Source: Escherichia coli
Lineage (GTDB): Bacteria; Pseudomonadota; Gammaproteobacteria; Enterobacterales; Enterobacteriaceae
Direction: 5' to 3' (one strand)
DNA length: 64,000 nt
Assembly (NCBI RefSeq): GCF_044324785.1
Contig: NZ_CP172127.1
Shown one piece after another: positions 50,353 through 58,670 of the stretch. Each line of letters opens with the position of its first letter. Positions within the stretch are counted from its first letter, which is position 1. The notes below the pieces were generated by a model. That model was not told the origin of the DNA. It was given only the letters and a program-made list of their open reading frames with translations, and did not search any database. Both the position numbers and the translations under genes were made by a program.

Positions 50353-50684
50353 CTTCCGCAACCTGGATGGAGATTTTCATGCCAGTGGACTCATGACCCT
50401 CTGCCTGAGTAGTTCAAATCCGGCTCGACCATACATCTGGCCTTTCAGCATTTTTAGCCAATTTACATGACTTTCGACCACCCCCCATTATTCCAGCGAC
50501 TGCTGATTGCCTCACATATAGCCGCAGCATCAGCTACCATCCTTGCAGCCACGCGCCGAAGTTACCACTTTCTCGTTGCTCTTTTAACCACTCCCTCCAT
50601 GGGTCCAGAAGTCCTCGCTCTGGAGGCCGGGTTGACATTTCAGGGAATGTTCCTGAACACACCCAGAGACTGACTGTCACACGT

Positions 50685-50741
50685 GATAAGCCTGTAATAC
50701 GGGATAAGCCTGTAATACGGGATAAGCCTGTAATACGGGAT
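50685..50741. repeat. Perfect 19-bp tandem repeat x3 (GATAAGCCTGTAATACGGG)
   Basis: Three exact head-to-tail copies; read through by the tail of the 50640..51539 ORF (IPYYRL x3). Confidence 0.9.
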
Positions 50742-50779
50742 ATTTCCCCTGAACCCACATCCCTTGTTATGTAGTGCCA

Positions 50780-51539
50780 TAACCTCTGTCCAACGCTGAT
50801 GCCGTTTTTGGCGGGTTTGCTGTTTAAGGCGTTCCGGACGACGGAGCGATGCTACAGGCACAGACAGTACTGGCTTAGGTGATTTCTTTGGTGACAACCC
50901 ACTGGCAACAAGACGTATCAGAGGCATCTGTCTGTACATCATTCGTTCAGGCGCATCGCCAATATTTTTTAGCAGGTGCCATCGATCAGCTATCTGTCTG
51001 GCCTGAGGTGCACCTTCACGTGCTGCTGTCGCATAGACTCCGCCACGGTCACGTGAGACAACCTGTATTTCCGGATATTTTCTGAACCAGGTCGCCAGCG
51101 TACTCTGATCGCAACCGGGAAGCAGGACGAGGGGACGGTGAGTATCAAGATTGACAATTAACGTGCCGTAATGGTGGCCCCGATGCCACGCCCACTCATC
51201 AATACCGACATGAGGCGCGCCCGACTGTTTCGTCTCCGGGGTATTAATAACCCTGCGAAGAAGAGTATCAGCACTGCAACGGAGCCCCACTGCCGTTGCT
51301 GCCTGTTTCCCGGCCTCACCTCCGGCTATTAATCCCAGTTGATGTTGTAAATTTTGTAACACCTGTGAAGAATGCTGGGAGTGAACCGGCGAAGGGGGCA
51401 AGCGACCCGGCAAAAATTTTACGTGAACAAGCCGGGTTACGGCAGTACCAGTGGCGGACGGAAAATACAAGCCATAGCGTCTGCCCTGAGCAGGGTAGAT
51501 GCTGTATCCGGCGCCGACGATAACTATGAACAGAGTCAC
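50780..51539 (-). pseudogene. ISL3-like transposase fragment, N-terminally truncated
   Basis: GIDEWAWHRGHHYGTLIVNLDTHRPLVLLPG...VVSRDRGGVYATAAREGAPQARQIADRWHLLKNIGDA resembles the ISL3-family catalytic region; no N-terminal zinc-finger/HTH part. Confidence 0.45.
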
Positions 51540-51716
51540 TACGCTTAAAGCATTCAGGACTTGTGCTGTTTTGCGTTTTCCGTGGAGATGGAGGGTTATA
51601 CCGTCAGAGCTAATAATTTGTCGACTGCATCTCCATCCGCAAGGTAACTGTAGAAGTGTCTGGTGATGCTGCCAACTTACTGATTTAGTGTATGATGGTG
51701 TTTTTGAGGTGCTCCA

Positions 51717-51992
51717 GTGGCTTCTGTTTCTATCAGCTGTCCCTCCTGTTCAGCTACTGACGGGGTGGTGCGTAACGGCAAAAGCACCGCCGGACATCAG
51801 CGCTATCTCTGCTCTCACTGCCGTAAAACATGGCAACTGCAGTTCACTTACACCGCTTCTCAACCCGGTACGCACCAGAAAATCATTGATATGGCCATGA
51901 ATGGCGTTGGATGCCGGGCAACTGCCCGCATTATGGGCGTTGGCCTCAACACGATTTTACGTCACTTAAAAAACTCAGGCCGCAGTCGGTAA
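51717..51992 (+). CDS. insA: IS1 InsA
   Basis: [88 protein letters not shown]. Confidence 0.9.
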
Positions 51993-52414
51993 CCTCGCGC
52001 ATACAGCCGGGCAGTGACGTCATCGTCTGCGCGGAAATGGACGAACAGTGGGGCTATGTCGGGGCTAAATCGCGCCAGCGCTGGCTGTTTTACGCGTATG
52101 ACAGTCTCCGGAAGACGGTTGTTGCGCACGTATTCGGTGAACGCACTATGGCGACGCTGGGGCGTCTTATGAGCCTGCTGTCACCCTTTGACGTGGTGAT
52201 ATGGATGACGGATGGCTGGCCGCTGTATGAATCCCGCCTGAAGGGAAAGCTGCACGTAATCAGCAAGCGATATACGCAGCGAATTGAGCGGCATAACCTG
52301 AATCTGAGGCAGCACCTGGCACGGCTGGGACGGAAGTCGCTGTCGTTTTCAAAATCGGTGGAGCTGCATGACAAAGTCATCAGGCATTATCTGAACATAA
52401 AACACTATCAATAA
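51911..52414 (+). CDS. insB: IS1 InsB frame (expressed as an InsAB fusion by frameshifting)
   Basis: ...[51 protein letters not shown]... Confidence 0.9.
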
Positions 52415-52425
52415 GTTGGAGTCAT

Positions 52426-52578
52426 TACCGTGTTCCCGACAGACGACTCGGTGAAAAAAGTGGTGTGGCTGGCAATCCAGTCTGCGTCCCAGAAATGGAC
52501 GATGCCGTTGAAGGACTGGCGAATGGCAATGAGCCGCTTTATTATCGAGTTCGGTGACCGCCTGGACGGTCACTTCTG
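52426..52578 (+). pseudogene. IS256-family transposase C-terminal fragment (last about 50 aa), abutting the IS1 right end
   Basis: VFPTDDSVKKVVWLAIQSASQKWTMPLKDWRMAMSRFIIEFGDRLDGHF-stop. Confidence 0.75.
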
Positions 52579-52848
52579 AGAAAAGGCATTTACACAGAAT
52601 CCTAAACAGGCTCATTCAGACAGCTTTTTATTTCACTATGGCTATCCCAGAACAATCAGTACAAATAATAAAAGACATATCACAGCAACACTCCACACTG
52701 ACAGCGCAAAAATAAATGCCGCCTTTGTTATCTTCATATACAAGCAACCTGTCCTGATAATCACCAGCTCATGTTTTATTCTTAACCATTCGTCACAAAT
52801 ACAACAAAAAATAACAGCAGCAGCACCGATATCACAATATAAGATACA

Positions 52849-53304
52849 TTATTCAACACCTGAATCCCCCGCCGCTTCTCTCCCCTTTATAAAACGCCCC
52901 TTCCGGAATCCAGACCGCTGCAGTGCACGACGAAGATGACCGTATACCGTCTTGTCATTCTGCCCCGTCTCTTCTGTAATCTCCGCAATACTTAAACCTC
53001 TGTAATACCGGTTCAGTAACGCTCTGCGCTCTTCCAGCGTCAACACACCTCCGGCCGCTCTCAGATTCAGCATCGACTTATTCAGAATACAGCAGGCCTC
53101 TCCGGTAAAAAGAATACGAACAATATCTGTATACTCATCATCACAGAATACAAAATAATATCTGAATGACCTGCCTGACTGCACCCTTCTTCTGTCTGAT
53201 ATGGCATCTTCTATATATCTGATTCGACTGCTTACGGTTCCAAATACCTCTCGCAGGGCTTTTTCAAAATAAATATCTCTCGTCGCCAGGATTATATCCA
53301 GCAT
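52849..53304 (-). CDS. LuxR/FixJ-type HTH transcriptional regulator
   Basis: 151-aa ORF; C-terminal LTLEERRALLNRYYRGLSIAEITEETGQNDKTVYGHLRRA resembles a LuxR-type HTH; N-terminal domain unassigned. Confidence 0.55.
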   Translation of the reverse strand: MLDIILATRDIYFEKALREVFGTVSSRIRYIEDAISDRRRVQSGRSFRYYFVFCDDEYTDIVRILFTGEACCILNKSMLNLRAAGGVLTLEERRALLNRYYRGLSIAEITEETGQNDKTVYGHLRRALQRSGFRKGRFIKGREAAGDSGVE

Positions 53305-53365
53305 CTCTGTACCTCATTATATCCCGGGGGACTCCCCCCGGGACAGATATCTAAATCCTGACCTG

Positions 53366-54631
53366 TCAGAACTCAAAATTCACACCAGCATTCCACGATG
53401 CGGATGACCCACCTGCAGCAACTGCAACTTTTCCTGCCACATTCTCTGTGAAACGGTAGCCCACGCCCACCGCAATGGCCTGCTCATCACGGTAACCACC
53501 AACGGCTGCTGTCGCGTTAAATTTTCCAACACTGTATGGCTGGAAAAGACCGGCCAGTGCCGCGCTCTGGGCTGCACTCTCCCTTAACTCCTTCCGGTTC
53601 TCTTTAATCTGCTCCTGCATATTATTCATTCTCTCTGTCGCCATCTTCTGCCAGGCTTCCGTCAAATCCAGACGATGACTGTTATTCCTTATCGCTGCTG
53701 TATTTGAGGCTATTGCTGCATCCGTCTGCGCCCTGTTCTTCACAAGCACATCGCTGAGATGTTCTGCCTGGCTTTTCGCTTCTTTACGGGCATCCCGTAC
53801 ACTTTTATCTGTATAAGCCCGGGAAACCTGAACTGTTTCATCCGCTTTTTCTTTTATTTCATCCTGAAGAGCAAGAGAAGATGCATCCGTATACGCCACC
53901 GCTGCCGATGTGCCTGCAATAATATCCCTGCTGAGTTCATCACGTACTGCTGTAACCTGACTGTCAGTATGAGCACGGGCATCTCTGTATACACCGCCTA
54001 TCTCACCGCGCAGGGCATCCCCCGACACCCGTACAGCATCTGCAATGGCGTTGTCCATCTGTCCTTTTGTGGCCGCATCACTATCCTTAACACCATCTGA
54101 AACATTTATAATCCGGCGGGTTTCCGGTGCTCCTTTGACACTCTCTCCATATCCCTCAGGCCCGGCACCAACAGATACCACGTTATTTTCTCCCGACACC
54201 TGTGAGCCATGGCCCAGAGCTACAGAACTGGTAGAATCCTGCACAGATGAAAACGCACCAATTGCCGAGCTCTGACGAGAAGAAATAAGTGACGCTTCTT
54301 TTCCTGCAACAGTCCCCCATTCAGAGTCAGCAATAAGTGCATCATGCCCCAGACTCACACTTCCCGGAGAGTTCACAACACCAGAATTATTCCCCAAAAG
54401 CACAGTCCTGTTTGAGTCTAATAAAAAAGAATCATCACCAATCAACCATACATTTCTTACTTTATCAATCGAACGGCCAGCTACTGATTCTCCAACAAGA
54501 AAGCTATTATCTTCGCCAGGTTCAATCGGTCCGATTAAAATATCCTGAGCCTGAGCCTGAGCCGAGAGCAGCAGGGCCACACTCACTGCCAGCGCGCTTT
54601 TCTTTAAAAAAGCATCACGTCTTTTAAGCAT
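53366..54631 (-). CDS. Trimeric autotransporter adhesin, YadA/Eib-like
   Basis: Signal peptide [28 protein letters not shown]; coiled-coil stalk; C-terminal YadA-type anchor ([42 protein letters not shown]...GVNFEF); the track ORF starts 54 bp earlier. Confidence 0.8.
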
Positions 54632-55828
54632 TCTGTTATTCTCCTGTATTATTACTTCACCAGCCAGAACGGTAGTGCGGAGCAAAAATACAGTGATAAG
54701 AATCCTCTTTTATTAATTTAATAATGCCAGGAATATTATTGTGTATAATATGCGCCCTCAATTTAAGCAGCAGAAAAGCAATGACGAGAAAATCATTAAA
54801 ATACATAAAGATAAAACATCATAACTATAATTATAATAAGCGCGCTTATTTTAGCATCTGAACATTTAAAGTACTGCTATCACAAAACAATAAAAATCCT
54901 GGGTAATATCTCTGATGATTGAATGAGAAATTCACGATGTCTGGTGAGAATTCTGTTCAAAACGAGGAATGCAGACATACATGTGGCAGGCATGGACTTC
55001 CACCGATTTAACTTTTTTCCTTCCTTGTATTTACACATCACACATTTTGCGCTACAAAAATTTCACGTGGCACGCACCACGTGATCCGTAGAAAAGCCTC
55101 TTGTTACGAATTTCGTAAACCGCACGTCTGTCTGGTCGTGCGGATTTTTTATCCGTCAACTTCACATGAAACCGCCAGATCACTGTTTCCGGATTCAGAC
55201 ATCAGGCATATTATCATCCACAATGTCGTGAACAAGATCACACTTTTGCAATTCCTTTATTGATCGAAAGCAGTTAATCACGGAAATTAATTACCGGAGT
55301 GAAAGCATTACTGCATCGTAAATATCTACCATTTTTGACTACACCCTCTGACAGAATTTTCAGAGGGTTTTTTATCAGTTTCACCATCCAACCCTGTACG
55401 CCAGAATGGTTTCACTGTCACTCAGTTCTGCTATTGCCTTTTTCATCTCCCTTTACCTTACGTTCTGCCAGAGTCTGAGCCATTTGAACAGGAGGTTATC
55501 ATTGATATCGTGTTCCCGGGCAATACGGGCAACAGAGGCTCCTGGTTGCAAAACCAGTTTAACCATTTGAAGTTTAACTCATTTGAAAATGATCTGCGGG
55601 GTTCTGCGGATAATGTTTTTGCTCCATAACAGGCGCCCACCAGTTTGAAAAGGTGGGCACCTACGTTACCAATACTGGCTTAATGGATACATACGGCGGT
55701 CGGTTCTTACGGTAAAACGACACAACCAAACGCTTCTTATCCTGCAATGAACTGCTTTATTACCGAGTTTAGTGACCGCACAGACACTCACTTTTAAGAA
55801 AAACAGAATGGTAAACAAACTCCATGAA

Positions 55829-56005
55829 TTACAATAGCTCTCTGGCTGCCGCCACAATAGCTTGCGCGGTTAACCCGTACTCTCTCTGTAAAAAGTCCTG
55901 AGTTTCAACCTGGCCATACCGCTCTTTAACCCCCACCCGACGCATGGGCACAGGACAAGTTTCTACAAGCACTTCAGCAACTGCTGAACCTAATCCATTA
56001 TGAAT
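55829..56005 (-). pseudogene. C-terminal fragment of a transketolase-family (C-terminal subunit) gene, truncated by the IS1-family element
   Basis: Minus-strand frame ...HNGLGSAVAEVLVETCPVPMRRVGVKERYGQVETQDFLQREYGLTAQAIVAAARELL-stop. Confidence 0.45.
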
Positions 56006-56780
56006 ACGGTAATGACTCCAATTAGTTGAATTAGGAGTATAATAGCCACTTTTAAGGTTCTTTCATGGTCACAGTTAACCTTCATTGCTCCTGTTGCCAG
56101 TCCGTTCAGGTTTACCGTCACGGGAAGAACCCAAAGGACATGATCGATTTCGCTGCCGTGACTGTCATCGAGTGCTTCAGCTCACTTACCGTTACGAGGC
56201 CCGTAAACCGGGAGTTAAAGAGCAAATCACTGAAATGGCTTTCAACGGTGCCGGAGTTCGCGATACTGCCCGTACGCTGAAAATCGGCATTAATACTGTC
56301 ATCCGGACTTTAAAAAACTCTCGCCACGAAGAATAACGTCATACCCGGTCGCTCATGCTGATATGGCACTCATCTGCGAACTTGATGAGCAATGGAGTTT
56401 TGTCGGCAGTAAAGCGCGACAGCACTGGCTCTGGTACACGTACAACACGAAAACTGGTGGCGTTCTGGCCTACACTTTTGGCCTACGGACTGATTAAACC
56501 TGTCGTGAATTGCTGGCGCTGCTTGCCCTTTTACCATCGGTATGTTGACCACTGACGAATGGGGTAGTTACACCAGAGAGTTACCGAAGGAGAAGCATCT
56601 GACTGGTAAGATTTTTACTCAGCGCATTGAGCGCAACATCTACCTCTGAGAACCCGAATCAAACGTCTGGCCCGCAGAACTATCTGTTTCACGCGCTCTG
56701 TAGAACTTCATGAAAAAGTCATCGGTGCCTTTATCGAAAAATATATGTTCTACTAATTGGAGTCACCACCTTCGTTTGTT
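56006..56780 (+). mobile_element. Degenerate IS1-family element (divergent IS1 relative), frameshifted insA/insB
   Basis: IS1-like terminal sequences at both ends (GGTAATGACTCCAATTAG... and ...CTAATTGGAGTCACCACC); InsA-like ORFs 56065..56336 (CRDCHRVLQLTYRYEARKPGVKEQITEMAFNGAGVRDTARTLKIGINTVIRTLKN) and InsB-like fragments (ICELDEQWSFVGSKARQHWLWYTYN). Confidence 0.6.
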
Positions 56781-57322: not shown

Positions 57323-57667
57323 TGACAAAACGCCAGAGCAAAAACCGTAAGCGCATTATTCGTCTTGTGGAACTCTGGCCTGAGTCATTCAACCGGGAAA
57401 AAAACAAAACCACTTAAAGTGGGGATACCTGACGACCTGATACAGGATATCGCCATCCGAGAACTGGCGTTTGGCGCTGGTACATTACATGCAGCAGTGG
57501 CGTCTTATGTGCAGTCTCCGCGCTATTACCGTGCGTTAATAGCAGGTGGCGCCCGTTACAACCTGAACGGTCAGCCGTGCGGGGAAGTGACACCACAGGA
57601 ACAGAAAGAGGCAGAGACCCGTTTAATGATGCTGAATGACCGACGAAAAGACAGAAAACCTCGTTGA
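57323..57667 (+). pseudogene. ProQ/FinO-domain RNA-binding protein gene, frameshifted after about 30 codons
   Basis: MTKRQSKNRKRIIRLVELWPESFNREKNKTT-stop, then in another frame PLKVGIPDDLIQDIAIRELAFGAGTLHAAVASYVQSPRYYRALIAGGARYNLNGQPCGEVTPQEQKEAE. Confidence 0.5.
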
Positions 57668-57684: not shown

Positions 57685-58422
57685 TCACTGAGCTGTAATC
57701 AATGTACAGCGCTGTACCGGGCGATGGGTAATACCGGTCACAACCGGTAACCCCAGAGACAATGCAACTGTTTTTAACGCAATATACTGGCCGGATGTAT
57801 CACCCCGGGCAGCCTGAAAACACCTTTCCACCCGGCATTGTCCGTCAGCACTTATCACCCGCCATGTCTGTTGCAATAAATCCACCCGTTGCGAACATTC
57901 TTCATCAACCGTGGCACTGACCCGTGGATGGCAAATGCTCGTCTGGCTGAGCAGCAACAGGCATCGCATTGTTGCTCCTCCATGTTGTTCCCGCAACCAG
58001 CGTAATACCACCGGTGGTGCTGGACTGGCCGTGTGATTACGTTCAGTAATACGCTCGTGCACCTGTCGGTAAAAGGAAGTACAGAATGCATGAATCTGTT
58101 GTCCGTTGATGTTTCCTTCTGCCGAATGGAGTGTGAAGTGGACGGCCAGCAGACGCGGCCAGTGATCCACCGCCTGCTGAATAAAACGCCGGATTTCCAC
58201 CGGCTCTGAAAGTACGGTTTCGGTTATTTGCACGATTTGATCCCCTTGAATGTTGCTGAACCGGTGTCGGTACGCAGGAAAGCACGCCGAGACCGGTACG
58301 ATGCCTGTTACAGCGAAGAACGAGGAATGACAGACGGGGGCAGCAGGTCGCCAGCACCAGGGACAGGGCTGATTTCCACAATACCAACGCTGGTATTTTG
58401 CACATTGCCAGCGTACCGGCAT
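57685..58422 (-). CDS. Hypothetical island protein downstream of alpA (paralog fragment at 23000..23567)
   Basis: Track ORF 57685..58479 overlaps alpA, so the start is probably later; a second long ORF is open in another frame over the same DNA (57855..58091), so the frame is uncertain. Confidence 0.35.
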   Translation of the reverse strand: MPVRWQCAKYQRWYCGNQPCPWCWRPAAPVCHSSFFAVTGIVPVSACFPAYRHRFSNIQGDQIVQITETVLSEPVEIRRFIQQAVDHWPRLLAVHFTLHSAEGNINGQQIHAFCTSFYRQVHERITERNHTASPAPPVVLRWLREQHGGATMRCLLLLSQTSICHPRVSATVDEECSQRVDLLQQTWRVISADGQCRVERCFQAARGDTSGQYIALKTVALSLGLPVVTGITHRPVQRCTLITAQ

Positions 58423-58433
58423 TACAACACGTT

Positions 58434-58670
58434 TCATGCGGCGACTCCCCGTGATGCTTCGATGCGCTGCTGCATCCACTGCTCCACTTCGCTTCTGTAC
58501 CAGCGGCTGCTGCGGCCCAGTTTGATGGGTTTAGGGAAATGGCCTTCACTGATCAGCTTGTAAAACCATTTGTCGGTCATACCAGTGAAGCTGGTGATGT
58601 AGTTCATGTCGATCAGGGGATCGTCGGCACGCAGCAATACGCTGTCGTGACCTGTCATTGAGGTCAACAT
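58434..58670 (-). CDS. alpA: AlpA-family phage/island regulatory protein (HTH)
   Basis: ...MNYITSFTGMTDKWFYKLISEGHFPKPIKLGRSSRWYRSEVEQWMQQRIE, typical AlpA/Vis-type small DNA-binding protein. Confidence 0.7.
   Translation of the reverse strand: MLTSMTGHDSVLLRADDPLIDMNYITSFTGMTDKWFYKLISEGHFPKPIKLGRSSRWYRSEVEQWMQQRIEASRGVAA

Follow-up and report, generated by a model that had tools for sequence, protein, structure and literature searches.

We find that positions 52849..54631 of the window, by which we mean the whole 64,000-nucleotide stretch of Escherichia coli DNA analysed here (contig NZ_CP172127.1), very probably hold a horizontally spread two-gene E. coli cassette, made up of an adhesin gene together with a small gene for a putative regulator. 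The adhesin is, as judged from its sequence, a trimeric autotransporter adhesin (TAA) of type Vc, and its partner is a 151-aa putative DNA-binding protein. An earlier, sequence-only reading had delimited the locus exactly: the stop codon of the 151-aa ORF ends at 52849, and the TAA gene begins with its ATG at 54631. Comparison with related loci indicates, beyond what that reading could know, that the pairing of adhesin and regulator is conserved. In E. coli, trimeric autotransporters act in adhesion, aggregation and immune evasion, and they have been put forward as vaccine targets; the lineage of the window TAA is uncharacterised and occurs in roughly 3% of the complete E. coli genomes. The two genes and the segments of the TAA are the following.

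53366..54631, minus strand: TAA gene, an intact ORF of 421 aa plus stop
54545..54631, minus strand: Sec-type signal peptide (aa 1-29), identified by inspection from a basic N-terminus, a hydrophobic core and an AQA cleavage motif
54161..54439, minus strand: YadA-like left-handed beta-roll head (aa ~65-157) of five to six 14-15-residue repeats
54047..54160, minus strand: neck (aa ~158-195), matched by PF05662 YadA_stalk (neck motif) at E 0.0012, below threshold
53546..54046, minus strand: coiled-coil stalk (aa ~196-362, ~165 residues), with low-confidence AF2 helices at 186-247 and 252-360
53369..53545, minus strand: YadA-type beta-barrel membrane anchor (aa 363-421), ending in GVNFEF like the Eib proteins
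52849..53304, minus strand: gene of the 151-aa DNA-binding protein, with a receiver-like alpha/beta domain (aa 1-80) and a helix-turn-helix (HTH; aa ~86-131)

The TAA gene is intact, and NCBI contains a protein (P0045) identical to its 421-aa product. An AGGAG precedes the ATG at 54631 by 9-10 nt, and RefSeq starts identical alleles, under the name 'YadA-like family protein', at this codon; a TTG-extended version of the ORF reaches 54685 (439 aa). A profile search finds the YadA_anchor domain (PF03895) as a full-length match at the extreme C-terminus (E 2.1e-16, 60.2 bits vs. a cut-off of 22.7; residues 381-439 of the 439-aa ORF, that is, 363-421 in the 421-aa numbering), and 2lme, the solved structure of the YadA anchor, is matched with E 1.3e-17. 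The autotransporter type and the anchor reported in the sequence-only reading are thus borne out, and the length that it gave, 420 aa, becomes 421 aa from the ATG. That reading also described a short coiled-coil passenger; the coiled coil is there, and the passenger is not short, as it has a head and a neck in addition to about 165 stalk residues.

The signal peptide, which contains an (AQ)n hexanucleotide repeat (54544..54563, tandem repeat search), is identical across all TAA alleles compared. The head, which had gone unmentioned, appears in the AF2 monomer as regular short strands at 68-154, the only part of the head and stalk with pLDDT 60-73; it aligns with the head of EibC/D/E at 35% identity, and the NCBIfam YadA_autotrans model aligns from aa 109 onward (421-aa numbering), with no match to YadA_head in the Pfam search. 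In the neck, D185, A186 and A187 are invariant and T171, R172, D179, G180, T188 and Q191 near-invariant between the window TAA and the Eib proteins. The stalk carries three YxD motifs (Y215, Y247 and Y273) and one copy of a 33-aa repeat that is present twice in other alleles; the alleles of GF60 and TUM9803 have an additional insertion of about 60 aa. Allele comparison shows that the proteins are mosaic, with a variable head segment and an invariant C-terminal part of about 240 aa, a pattern which indicates that head and upper stalk are swapped as cassettes whereas lower stalk and anchor stay constant. Variation of the exposed head and upper stalk by cassette exchange is as expected of a surface antigen under selection.

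Among characterised proteins, EibC/D/E are closest to the TAA, with 36-37% identity over the whole protein and about 74% within the anchor, which upholds the Eib likeness perceived from the sequence: EibD scores 161 bits (36% identity over 343 aa, E 6e-49), compared with about 78-80 bits for YadA and about 72 bits for Saa. By region, identity to EibD is 74.6% in the anchor (74.6% also vs. EibA), 35% in head and neck and 22% in the stalk. The Eib proteins (EibA, C, D and E of ECOR-9 prophages; EibD structures 2XQH/2XZR) are likewise short TAAs of 390-510 aa, and they have in common with the window TAA a YadA-like beta-roll head, the neck motif, a YxD stalk, the ~74%-identical anchor with its GVNFEF terminus and, next on the same strand past a stem-loop, a small gene of the ORF-156 family. 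The lineage of the window TAA is thus mosaic and centred on E. coli, and the prophage-borne Eib proteins are its sister group.

Given this kinship, the TAA could be taken for a true Eib, that is, a non-immune receptor for IgG Fc or IgA that confers serum resistance like EibA-H, and some database entries for alleles of the lineage are indeed labelled 'immunoglobulin-binding protein'; those names, however, are automatic and absent from current RefSeq annotation. Identity to EibA/C/D/E is only 32-37%, whereas these four Eib proteins are 53-88% identical to each other. The Eib N-terminal domain of about 130 aa is gapped out of the window TAA in the alignment, and the saddle region of EibD has no counterpart there. 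For the missing saddle, this alignment is better evidence than the structure prediction, which lends weak support with a continuous helix of low confidence (monomer pLDDT 47). The stalk motif RID[YA]A of EibA/C/D/E is replaced by RKEAK at residues 282-286, a stretch that falls in the 22%-identity region where the alignment register is uncertain; mutation of the conserved Asp of this motif in EibG (D391) abolishes IgG Fc binding, and Cla proteins, which also lack the RID[YA]A residues, fail to bind IgG Fc (bioRxiv 10.64898/2025.12.25.695649). Finally, eib genes occupy the tail-fibre end of lambdoid prophages, whereas the window locus is outside any prophage, in a chromosomal island with insertion sequence (IS) debris. 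Since N-terminal domain, saddle and IgG-binding Asp motif are all absent, the sequence evidence marks the window TAA as Eib-related and not an Eib, and antibody binding is not expected; we consider a true Eib very improbable.

The prototype TAA, YadA of Yersinia (NCBIfam NF033478), has the same lollipop architecture and falls in the same size class, and the NCBIfam YadA model can be aligned with its final head repeats and all that follows up to the C-terminus. YadA differs, however, in sequence (25-30% identity to the window TAA) and in location, the window gene being chromosomal in E. coli and not on pYV; with 78.9 bits against the cut-off of 750 for NF033478, an exception-level model, the window TAA is not a YadA orthologue. 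Two Eib-related lineages, Cla and Yal, were named in a December 2025 preprint (bioRxiv 10.64898/2025.12.25.695649), which reports Eib-like E. coli TAAs that lack the N-terminal domain and lie in non-Eib genomic contexts. According to the same preprint, Cla proteins mediate chain-like adhesion on host cells, have a pronounced saddle and do not bind IgG, and Yal proteins have neither saddle nor N-terminal domain and group closer to Saa than to Eib (bioRxiv 10.64898/2025.12.25.695649). Compared by these published descriptions, the window TAA resembles Yal in the lack of both an N-terminal domain and a detectable saddle, but it is far nearer to EibD than to Saa by the scores above, and the pronounced saddle of Cla is not seen in it; we hold membership in one of the two lineages to be possible, but less likely than not. 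We also considered eYadA of APEC TW-XM (Vet Res 2026, PMC12955052) as the identity of the TAA and rejected it, as eYadA is a different 338-aa TAA at the cueR-ybbJ locus with only weak anchor similarity (E 0.006) and an unrelated gene downstream.

The 151-aa partner had been described as a protein on the same strand with a LuxR-type HTH. Strand and HTH stand; the Pfam family above threshold is, however, Sigma70_r4_2 (31.2 bits vs. a threshold of 25.7, aa 87-130), and neither GerE/LuxR (PF00196) nor Response_reg is matched in the Pfam search. Of the sigma factor regions only region 4 matches, with region 2 absent, and the NCBIfam sigma models all remain far below their cut-offs (about 20 bits vs. 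43-222). The LuxR label was nonetheless close: the AF2 model (pLDDT 77) has four beta-alpha units followed by three helices, and this predicted two-domain architecture best matches the NarL/FixJ (LuxR-type) response regulators RcsB, FixJ and EvgA, with further fold matches to NarL, GerE and ECF sigma region 4. RcsB, EvgA and FixJ, the best full-length structural matches, combine a flavodoxin-like receiver fold with an HTH of the LuxR/sigma-4 class; NarL/FixJ response regulators are defined by a complete (beta-alpha)5 receiver with an acidic pocket, a phospho-acceptor Asp, Thr/Ser and Lys, whereas the receiver-like domain of the window protein is truncated to four predicted strands. In that domain strand 3 still ends with an Asp (D55), the strand-1 acidic pair reads TR[DN], and strand 5 is absent together with its conserved Lys, so that phosphorylation is unlikely. 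The model thus predicts a putative DNA-binding protein with a truncated, phosphorylation-incompetent receiver-like domain and a sigma-70-region-4/LuxR-type HTH, and a putative role in transcriptional control is likely. No match in PADLOC pointed to a role in a defence system.

Homologues of the 151-aa protein were sought with single-sequence searches in 5.8 billion proteins (word-indexed) and in 1.84 billion representatives (full HMMER), which returned near-identical E. coli copies or fragments and three HTH-only matches at E about 1e-3; with essentially no sequence diversity, selection on the protein is not measurable. The link to ORF-156, which is annotated directly downstream of eibA, eibC, eibD and eibE, came only through synteny and then profile comparison: hhalign pairs the 151-aa protein with ORF-156 at 95.3% probability (E 2.1e-8, 130 aligned columns), BLASTP aligns the two end to end (E 2e-4), and the N-terminal half matches phrog_6585 (E 3.4e-4). 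Both families contain the motifs ILATR[DN]xY[FL]E, LT[LM]xE and KTV and an Asp at the end of strand 3. At 22% identity, these alignments identify the 151-aa protein as a remote homologue of ORF-156. The ORF-156 (phrog_6585) proteins of lambdoid prophages are 156-175 aa long, and their genes likewise follow the TAA gene on its strand; they differ from the window protein in an insertion of about 15 residues before the HTH, which the latter lacks, and in scoring below the Pfam Sigma70_r4_2 threshold, whereas the window protein scores above it.

The alternative to an inherited pairing is that the 151-aa gene has no functional link to the adhesin, being perhaps what is left of an ECF sigma factor gene, and that an accident of IS-mediated assembly placed it there. 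In sequence-family searches its product matches sigma-70 region 4 and nothing else, a single-sequence HMMER search of 1.84 billion proteins found no diverged homologues, IS debris runs throughout the locus, and a hairpin lies between the two genes. Moreover, ORF-156 homologues can occur without any TAA, as in phage 2B8, in Stx1a phages and at an hpaBC-PerC locus, so the partner is not strictly dedicated to the adhesin. Yet the order of a TAA gene followed on the same strand, after a spacer of 60-90 nt, by an ORF-156-like gene recurs in at least eight independent loci with partners diverged to 22% identity; the arrangement is found at eibA/C/D/E, at GER2 and at loci L014-L022, and in prophage and plasmid-like contigs 80-90 nt separate a YadA_anchor gene from the ORF-156 homologue downstream of it. 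Instead of sigma region 2 or 3, the N-terminal domain of the 151-aa protein has the receiver-like fold common to the ORF-156 proteins. The 151-aa gene is also intact, with a good ribosome-binding site, at least 99% identical in 182 genomes, and kept even where IS421 or ISKpn26 cuts the TAA gene. Because ORF-156 follows eibA/C/D/E and other short TAA genes of prophages and plasmids, we regard the gene pairing as ancestral and inherited, and an accidental neighbour as quite unlikely.

We further inspected the sequences around the two genes, which contain the following features.

53320..53345, minus strand: GC-rich 11-bp hairpin without a U tract, in the 61-nt spacer between the TAA gene and the 151-aa gene
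54632..55000, minus strand: AT-rich 5' region of the TAA gene (33.6% GC)
52782..52859, minus strand: tentative ORF of a 25-aa hydrophobic peptide (MLNNVSYIVISVLLLLFFVVFVTNG), whose GTG start overlaps the stop codon of the 151-aa gene

The spacer is predicted to fold stably (53295..53375, -33.1 kcal/mol, z -3.2), and terminator prediction did not call the hairpin as an intrinsic terminator; eib loci, in contrast, have a true terminator with a U tract at the equivalent position. The hairpin here and the true terminator there argue against simple co-expression of the two genes as an operon. Past the hairpin, a GAGG ribosome-binding site precedes the ATG of the 151-aa gene by 7 nt. As to the upstream side, AT-rich DNA had been noticed at 54700..55800; the AT-richness is confirmed, but its extent is narrower, with 42.7% GC in 55001..55800 compared to 33.6% in 54632..55000 and 49.1% in the window. 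The sole promoter-like site of this 5' region is TTCAGA-18-TATTAT (54862..54833), in a scan whose sites are no more numerous than expected by chance, and a 22-bp palindrome (54832..54853, inverted repeat search) covers its -10 element. No meaningful alignment was obtained between the DNA upstream of the window TAA gene and that upstream of eibA/D/E, and Rfam returned only a chance match (E 0.65) for leader and spacer. Downstream, the 25-aa ORF sits within the block that is conserved across genomic contexts. In prophages, ORF-156 is followed by ORF-60 homologues with one transmembrane segment; no sequence similarity was detected for the 25-aa ORF, and the small hydrophobic ORFs downstream had no PHROG match. 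We regard the 25-aa ORF, speculatively, as the positional analogue of ORF-60 in eib loci.

In analogy to YadA and EibD, the TAA would be exported by Sec, three chains, each contributing four strands, would assemble into a single 12-stranded outer-membrane barrel of the YadA type, and the stalk of about 165 residues, the neck and the beta-roll head would pass through this barrel to yield a lollipop-shaped surface fibre, which likely serves adhesion, autoaggregation or both. The literature searched yielded no functional data on the lineage of the window TAA or on ORF-156. The 151-aa protein would then be a cytoplasmic transcription factor that is most likely made at a low level by read-through of the adhesin transcript. 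It might feed back onto the AT-rich adhesin promoter, or it might tie the expression of the adhesin to that of other programmes, motility for example, as do PapX, MrpJ and TosEF. The genes of PapX, MrpJ and TosE/TosF are located at the 3' end of adhesin operons, and these regulators, of which TosE and TosF are LuxR-type, repress motility. Their likeness to the window protein is a positional analogy only, each being a small HTH protein encoded downstream of an adhesin gene on the same strand. Comparable proteins further include the auxiliary regulators RcsA, BglJ and MatA/EcpR, partners of the RcsB type, the last of which is adhesin-linked and also represses motility.

The label 'sigma factor-like HTH protein' and ORF-156, a hypothetical gene in the GenBank records of eib prophage loci, had no earlier connection in the sources searched; linked here, they jointly point to a conserved adhesin-regulator module. 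In its boldest form, which we think unlikely, this would mean that the ORF-156 and 'sigma factor-like HTH' proteins are previously unrecognised pseudo-receiver-HTH factors of about 150 aa that travel with Eib-type adhesins on prophages, plasmids and islands and could act as the adhesin's own switch. Such a switch might counter silencing of the AT-rich promoter or repress motility when the adhesin is made, and a membrane peptide encoded at its stop codon (ORF-60, or here the 25-aa ORF) might restrain the regulator as an anti-sigma factor does sigma region 4.

In the flanks of the cassette, IS elements are found on both sides as had been described.

51662..52429, plus strand: intact IS1A (InsA 91 aa, InsB 167 aa) in the downstream flank, with its left inverted repeat at 51662
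52430..52579, plus strand: 3' remnant of an IS256-family (IS1414-like) transposase gene (ORF ...EFGDRLDGHF), annotated in RefSeq in GF60 and TUM9803
55465..55640, minus strand: IS3-family transposase remnant in the upstream flank
~55829..56014, minus strand: transketolase gene fragment in the upstream flank
56065..56756, plus strand: degenerate IS1-family pseudogene in the upstream flank

For the upstream flank (55465..56756), coordinates were carried over from the GF60 locus, which is 99.9% identical and annotated in RefSeq; for the IS1A, RefSeq gives 'IS1-like element IS1A family transposase' at the near-identical TUM9803 locus. The cassette thus sits among IS remnants in a chromosomal island, and its horizontal acquisition, proposed from the sequence, is corroborated by a block of about 3.2 kb that recurs at 99% identity or more in different chromosomal neighbourhoods, four in all, with different IS neighbours. 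That IS1-family elements occur on both sides might suggest that the cassette moves as one piece, in the manner of an IS1 composite transposon. The two elements, however, have no nucleotide similarity to each other and one is a degenerate pseudogene, the blocks of BEN2908 and GF4 have no IS1 on either side, and the constant edge is the IS256-family remnant, which bounds the conserved cassette downstream, at an edge where GF4 has an intact IS1414; comparison of the genomic contexts refutes the composite transposon, which we give practically no chance. We also considered the tkt1 island of ExPEC, since transketolase and PTS genes flank the BEN2908 cassette; it is a different locus. Among 5426 complete E. 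coli genomes, 183 carry the 151-aa regulator gene, always on the chromosome and in up to six copies, with at least 99% identity in all carriers but one, and the hosts listed for the carrier genomes include many poultry and extraintestinal isolates.

The finding comprises two genes on the minus strand, whose limits (54631 at the start and 52849 at the end) coincide exactly with those that the sequence-only reading gave to the locus. Both the observation and its interpretation are supported, with some refinement. The features considered here are:

51662..52429, intact IS1A, flanking the conserved block in the window
53304 to 52849, minus strand, partner ORF, 151 aa, 61 nt downstream of the adhesin ORF
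53320..53345, hairpin within the 61-nt adhesin-partner spacer, 11 bp, GC-rich, no U tract
54631 (ATG) to 53366 (stop), minus strand, adhesin ORF, 421 aa
adhesin residues ~65-157, head, five to six repeats of 14-15 residues of the YadA head type, evenly spaced short strands in the AF2 monomer
adhesin residues ~158-195, neck motif, sub-threshold match to PF05662
adhesin residues ~196-362, stalk, helical by prediction, three YxD motifs

The adhesin gene is intact and encodes a type Vc trimeric autotransporter adhesin (TAA) of a lineage sister to Eib. As proposed from the sequence, it carries a YadA anchor: the Pfam YadA_anchor domain covers the last 59 residues (E = 2.1 × 10−16), and the solved YadA anchor 2lme matches with E = 1.3 × 10−17. 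The N-terminus reads as a predicted Sec signal peptide, and the AF2 monomer is of low confidence outside the head strands. Taken together, the anchor, signal peptide, head, neck and stalk make the adhesin a complete, short TAA. Use of a TTG-extended ORF (to 54685) is unlikely because AGGAG lies 9-10 nt before the ATG and RefSeq assigns the ATG start in identical alleles. The exact 421-aa protein is present in NCBI (P0045) and is uncharacterised. From knowledge of the family, the adhesin would be exported by Sec, its chains would trimerise into a 12-stranded barrel displaying the head and stalk, and it would mediate adhesion and/or autoaggregation. An (AQ)n run at the cleavage site of the signal peptide is encoded by a perfect hexanucleotide repeat (CCTGAG × 3.3 on the plus strand, 54544..54563) and is longer by one AQ unit in the allele of strain GF4; this change is in frame and therefore provides no on/off switch, and changes in repeat number may alter signal-peptide processing.

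A tblastn search of phage records with the adhesin recovered the ECOR-9 eib loci, and the suggested likeness to Eib held insofar as the nearest characterised relatives are Eib proteins: the match to EibD scores 161 bits at 36% identity along 343 residues, and GVNFEF is the C-terminus of both. YadA, at about 78-80 bits, and Saa, at 72 bits, are clearly further away; with the NCBIfam YadA model, whose cut-off is 750 bits, the adhesin reaches 78.9. By region, the barrel is 74.6% identical to that of EibD, the head and neck 35% and the stalk 22%. However, four Eib-defining features failed: identity to EibA/C/D/E is 32-37%, compared to 53-88% among these proteins; the Eib N-terminal domain and saddle segment have no counterpart in the alignment; RKEAK is aligned with the Eib RID[YA]A motif; and the locus, unlike Eib, lies outside any prophage. 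The adhesin is therefore Eib-related and should not be filed as Eib. Mutation of the Asp within the RID[YA]A motif in EibG abolished IgG Fc binding (bioRxiv 10.64898/2025.12.25.695649), in a preprint that also names Cla and Yal as Eib-related lineages. Judged from the sequence, the adhesin is not expected to bind antibodies.

We compared the alleles of BEN2908, GF4, GF60 and TUM9803, as well as database proteins 391-557 aa long. All share an identical signal peptide and C-terminal ~240 residues, and, set against window 53546..54439, differ by an alternative head cassette, with two unrelated head types, by a 33-residue stalk repeat that is present once or twice (once in the window), and, in some alleles, by a ~60-residue stalk insertion. 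Such cassette-type variation is usual for TAAs and exposed antigens. In some strains the gene is interrupted by IS421 or ISKpn26.

The partner gene is also intact and encodes a pseudo-receiver-HTH protein homologous to ORF-156, the gene annotated downstream of eib genes. The proposed label of LuxR-type is close in architecture (a receiver-like domain followed by an HTH), but the sequence family is that of sigma region 4: Sigma70_r4_2 matches residues 87-130 (31.2 bits, cut-off 25.7), and GerE/LuxR is absent among the Pfam matches. All NCBIfam sigma-factor models fall far under their thresholds, and region 2 is absent. In the receiver-like domain an Asp is retained where strand 3 ends, but strand 5 with its Lys is missing, so that the predicted domain is best called a pseudo-receiver.

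Direct searches with the 151-aa protein returned only near-identical E. coli copies. In each of the eibA, eibC, eibD and eibE GenBank records, an ORF-156 gene lies directly 3′ of eib, beyond a stem-loop. The alignment of the partner with ORF-156D begins at the first residue and extends as far as the HTH (22% identity, E = 2 × 10−4), hhalign against a profile of 19 ORF-156 family sequences gives 95.3% probability (E = 2.1 × 10−8, 130 columns), and phrog_6585, the PHROG family of ORF-156, matches the N-terminal half (E = 3.4 × 10−4). ILATR[DN]xY[FL]E, the strand-3 Asp, LT[LM]xE and KTV are invariant in both. Prophage ends (L017-L022), plasmid-like contigs (L014-L016) and phage GER2 likewise have an ORF-156 homologue 80-90 nt 3′ of a YadA-anchor gene. 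Synteny is thus conserved, and on this homology evidence the arrangement of adhesin and small HTH gene is inherited rather than accidental, because the partner is homologous to ORF-156, which recurs downstream of YadA-anchor genes. The pairing is not obligatory: homologues occur without a TAA in phage 2B8, Stx1a phages and an hpaBC-PerC chromosomal locus, and truncated remnants in about 150 Stx(-converting) phages. The grouping of the ‘sigma factor-like’ gene with ORF-156 in a single family accompanying Eib-type adhesins is modestly new; we found no publications on ORF-156 function in the literature searched, which did not extend to the original Eib papers.

Among these loci, the hpaBC-PerC homologue (L011-L013, 5001..5495) has hpaC on one side and a decayed dcuA/dcuB gene on the other and lies 5′ of a PerC-family gene, and that of phage 2B8 (L024, 3501..4043) directly follows tail-fibre genes, 5′ of an EspM2 effector gene. 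The plasmid-like contigs carry a four-gene run (1..5483) of a 1439-aa TAA, a BamE/OmpA-domain protein, a short TAA (254-367 aa) and the ORF-156 homologue, followed by CcdAB, PIN/MazE and Rep3 genes. In APEC TW-XM (L006, NZ_CP025328.1, 7175..8899), the unrelated 338-aa TAA eYadA, at the cueR-ybbJ locus, has two small hypothetical genes downstream in the same orientation, encoding 140 and 67 aa; the 140-aa product shows no similarity to the partner.

The 81-nt stretch over the spacer folds with −33.1 kcal/mol (z = −3.2), and GAGG follows the hairpin 7 nt before the partner ATG. At the same position eibD has a canonical terminator, whereas the window's hairpin lacks a U tract; the simplest reading is that the partner would be expressed by low-level read-through. 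The AT-rich upstream DNA of the sequence-only reading is found in 54632..55000 (33.6% GC), with one promoter-like site (54862..54833), no more than chance predicts. Its −10 is overlapped by a 22-bp palindrome (54832..54853; minus strand, TAAAATAAGCG and CGCTTATTATA), at most a candidate operator for a dimeric HTH protein. By analogy, the partner would be a transcription factor that might act on the adhesin promoter or couple adhesin expression to motility, as do PapX, MrpJ and TosEF, which are encoded at the 3′ end of other adhesin operons. No Rfam family matches the leader or the spacer.

Two small hydrophobic ORFs lie 3′ of the partner gene within the conserved block (52782..52859, minus strand, 25 aa, its GTG start overlapping the partner's stop codon; and 52642..52764, minus strand, 40 aa). 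In eib/prophage loci, ORF-156 is followed, often via an ATGA overlap, by ORF-60 (phrog_9340, a single-transmembrane peptide), with which the window's ORFs share no detected sequence similarity.

The window derives from the E. coli chromosome, and over the 20 kb surrounding the two genes its identity is 99.9% to GF60, insertions aside, and 98% to TUM9803. The cassette has spread by horizontal transfer, as had been proposed: the same block, bounded by IS256-family (about 52580) and IS3-family (about 55640) remnants, lies in differing neighbourhoods in BEN2908, GF4, GF60/TUM9803 and the window. Of 5426 complete E. coli genomes, 183 carry the partner gene, on the chromosome in every case and in up to six copies, and in 182 of the 183 it is at least 99% identical; in an evenly spaced sample, 17 of 30 carriers came from poultry, an apparent enrichment. 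IS elements do lie on both sides, IS1A and, 1.4 kb upstream on the other flank, a degenerate IS1-family pseudogene. These two share no nucleotide similarity, and a composite transposon is therefore ruled out.

Elsewhere in the window, an ISL3-family transposase pseudogene (50640..51539, minus strand) ends in a tandem 18-nt repeat encoding IPYYRL × 3 (ITGLSR × 3 in another frame), and a frameshifted ProQ/FinO-family gene (57365..57667) precedes a UCP030791 ‘phage-derived’ gene (57685..58479). In related loci these two are followed by AlpA, inovirus Gp2-like, GTPase, DUF932, antirestriction and RadC genes, the usual backbone of tRNA-associated integrative islands of E. coli; the window itself contains no tRNA gene. 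GF60 and several other genomes carry at least two cassette copies. The only close match to the adhesin locus in the plasmid collection is the IncI-gamma/K1 NDM-5 plasmid pNDM5_LS003 (L001, NZ_OP290546.1, 5975..7803), which holds only the first 585 nt of the adhesin gene, annotated ‘Tat pathway signal sequence protein’, together with the AT-rich upstream region and adjoining floR.
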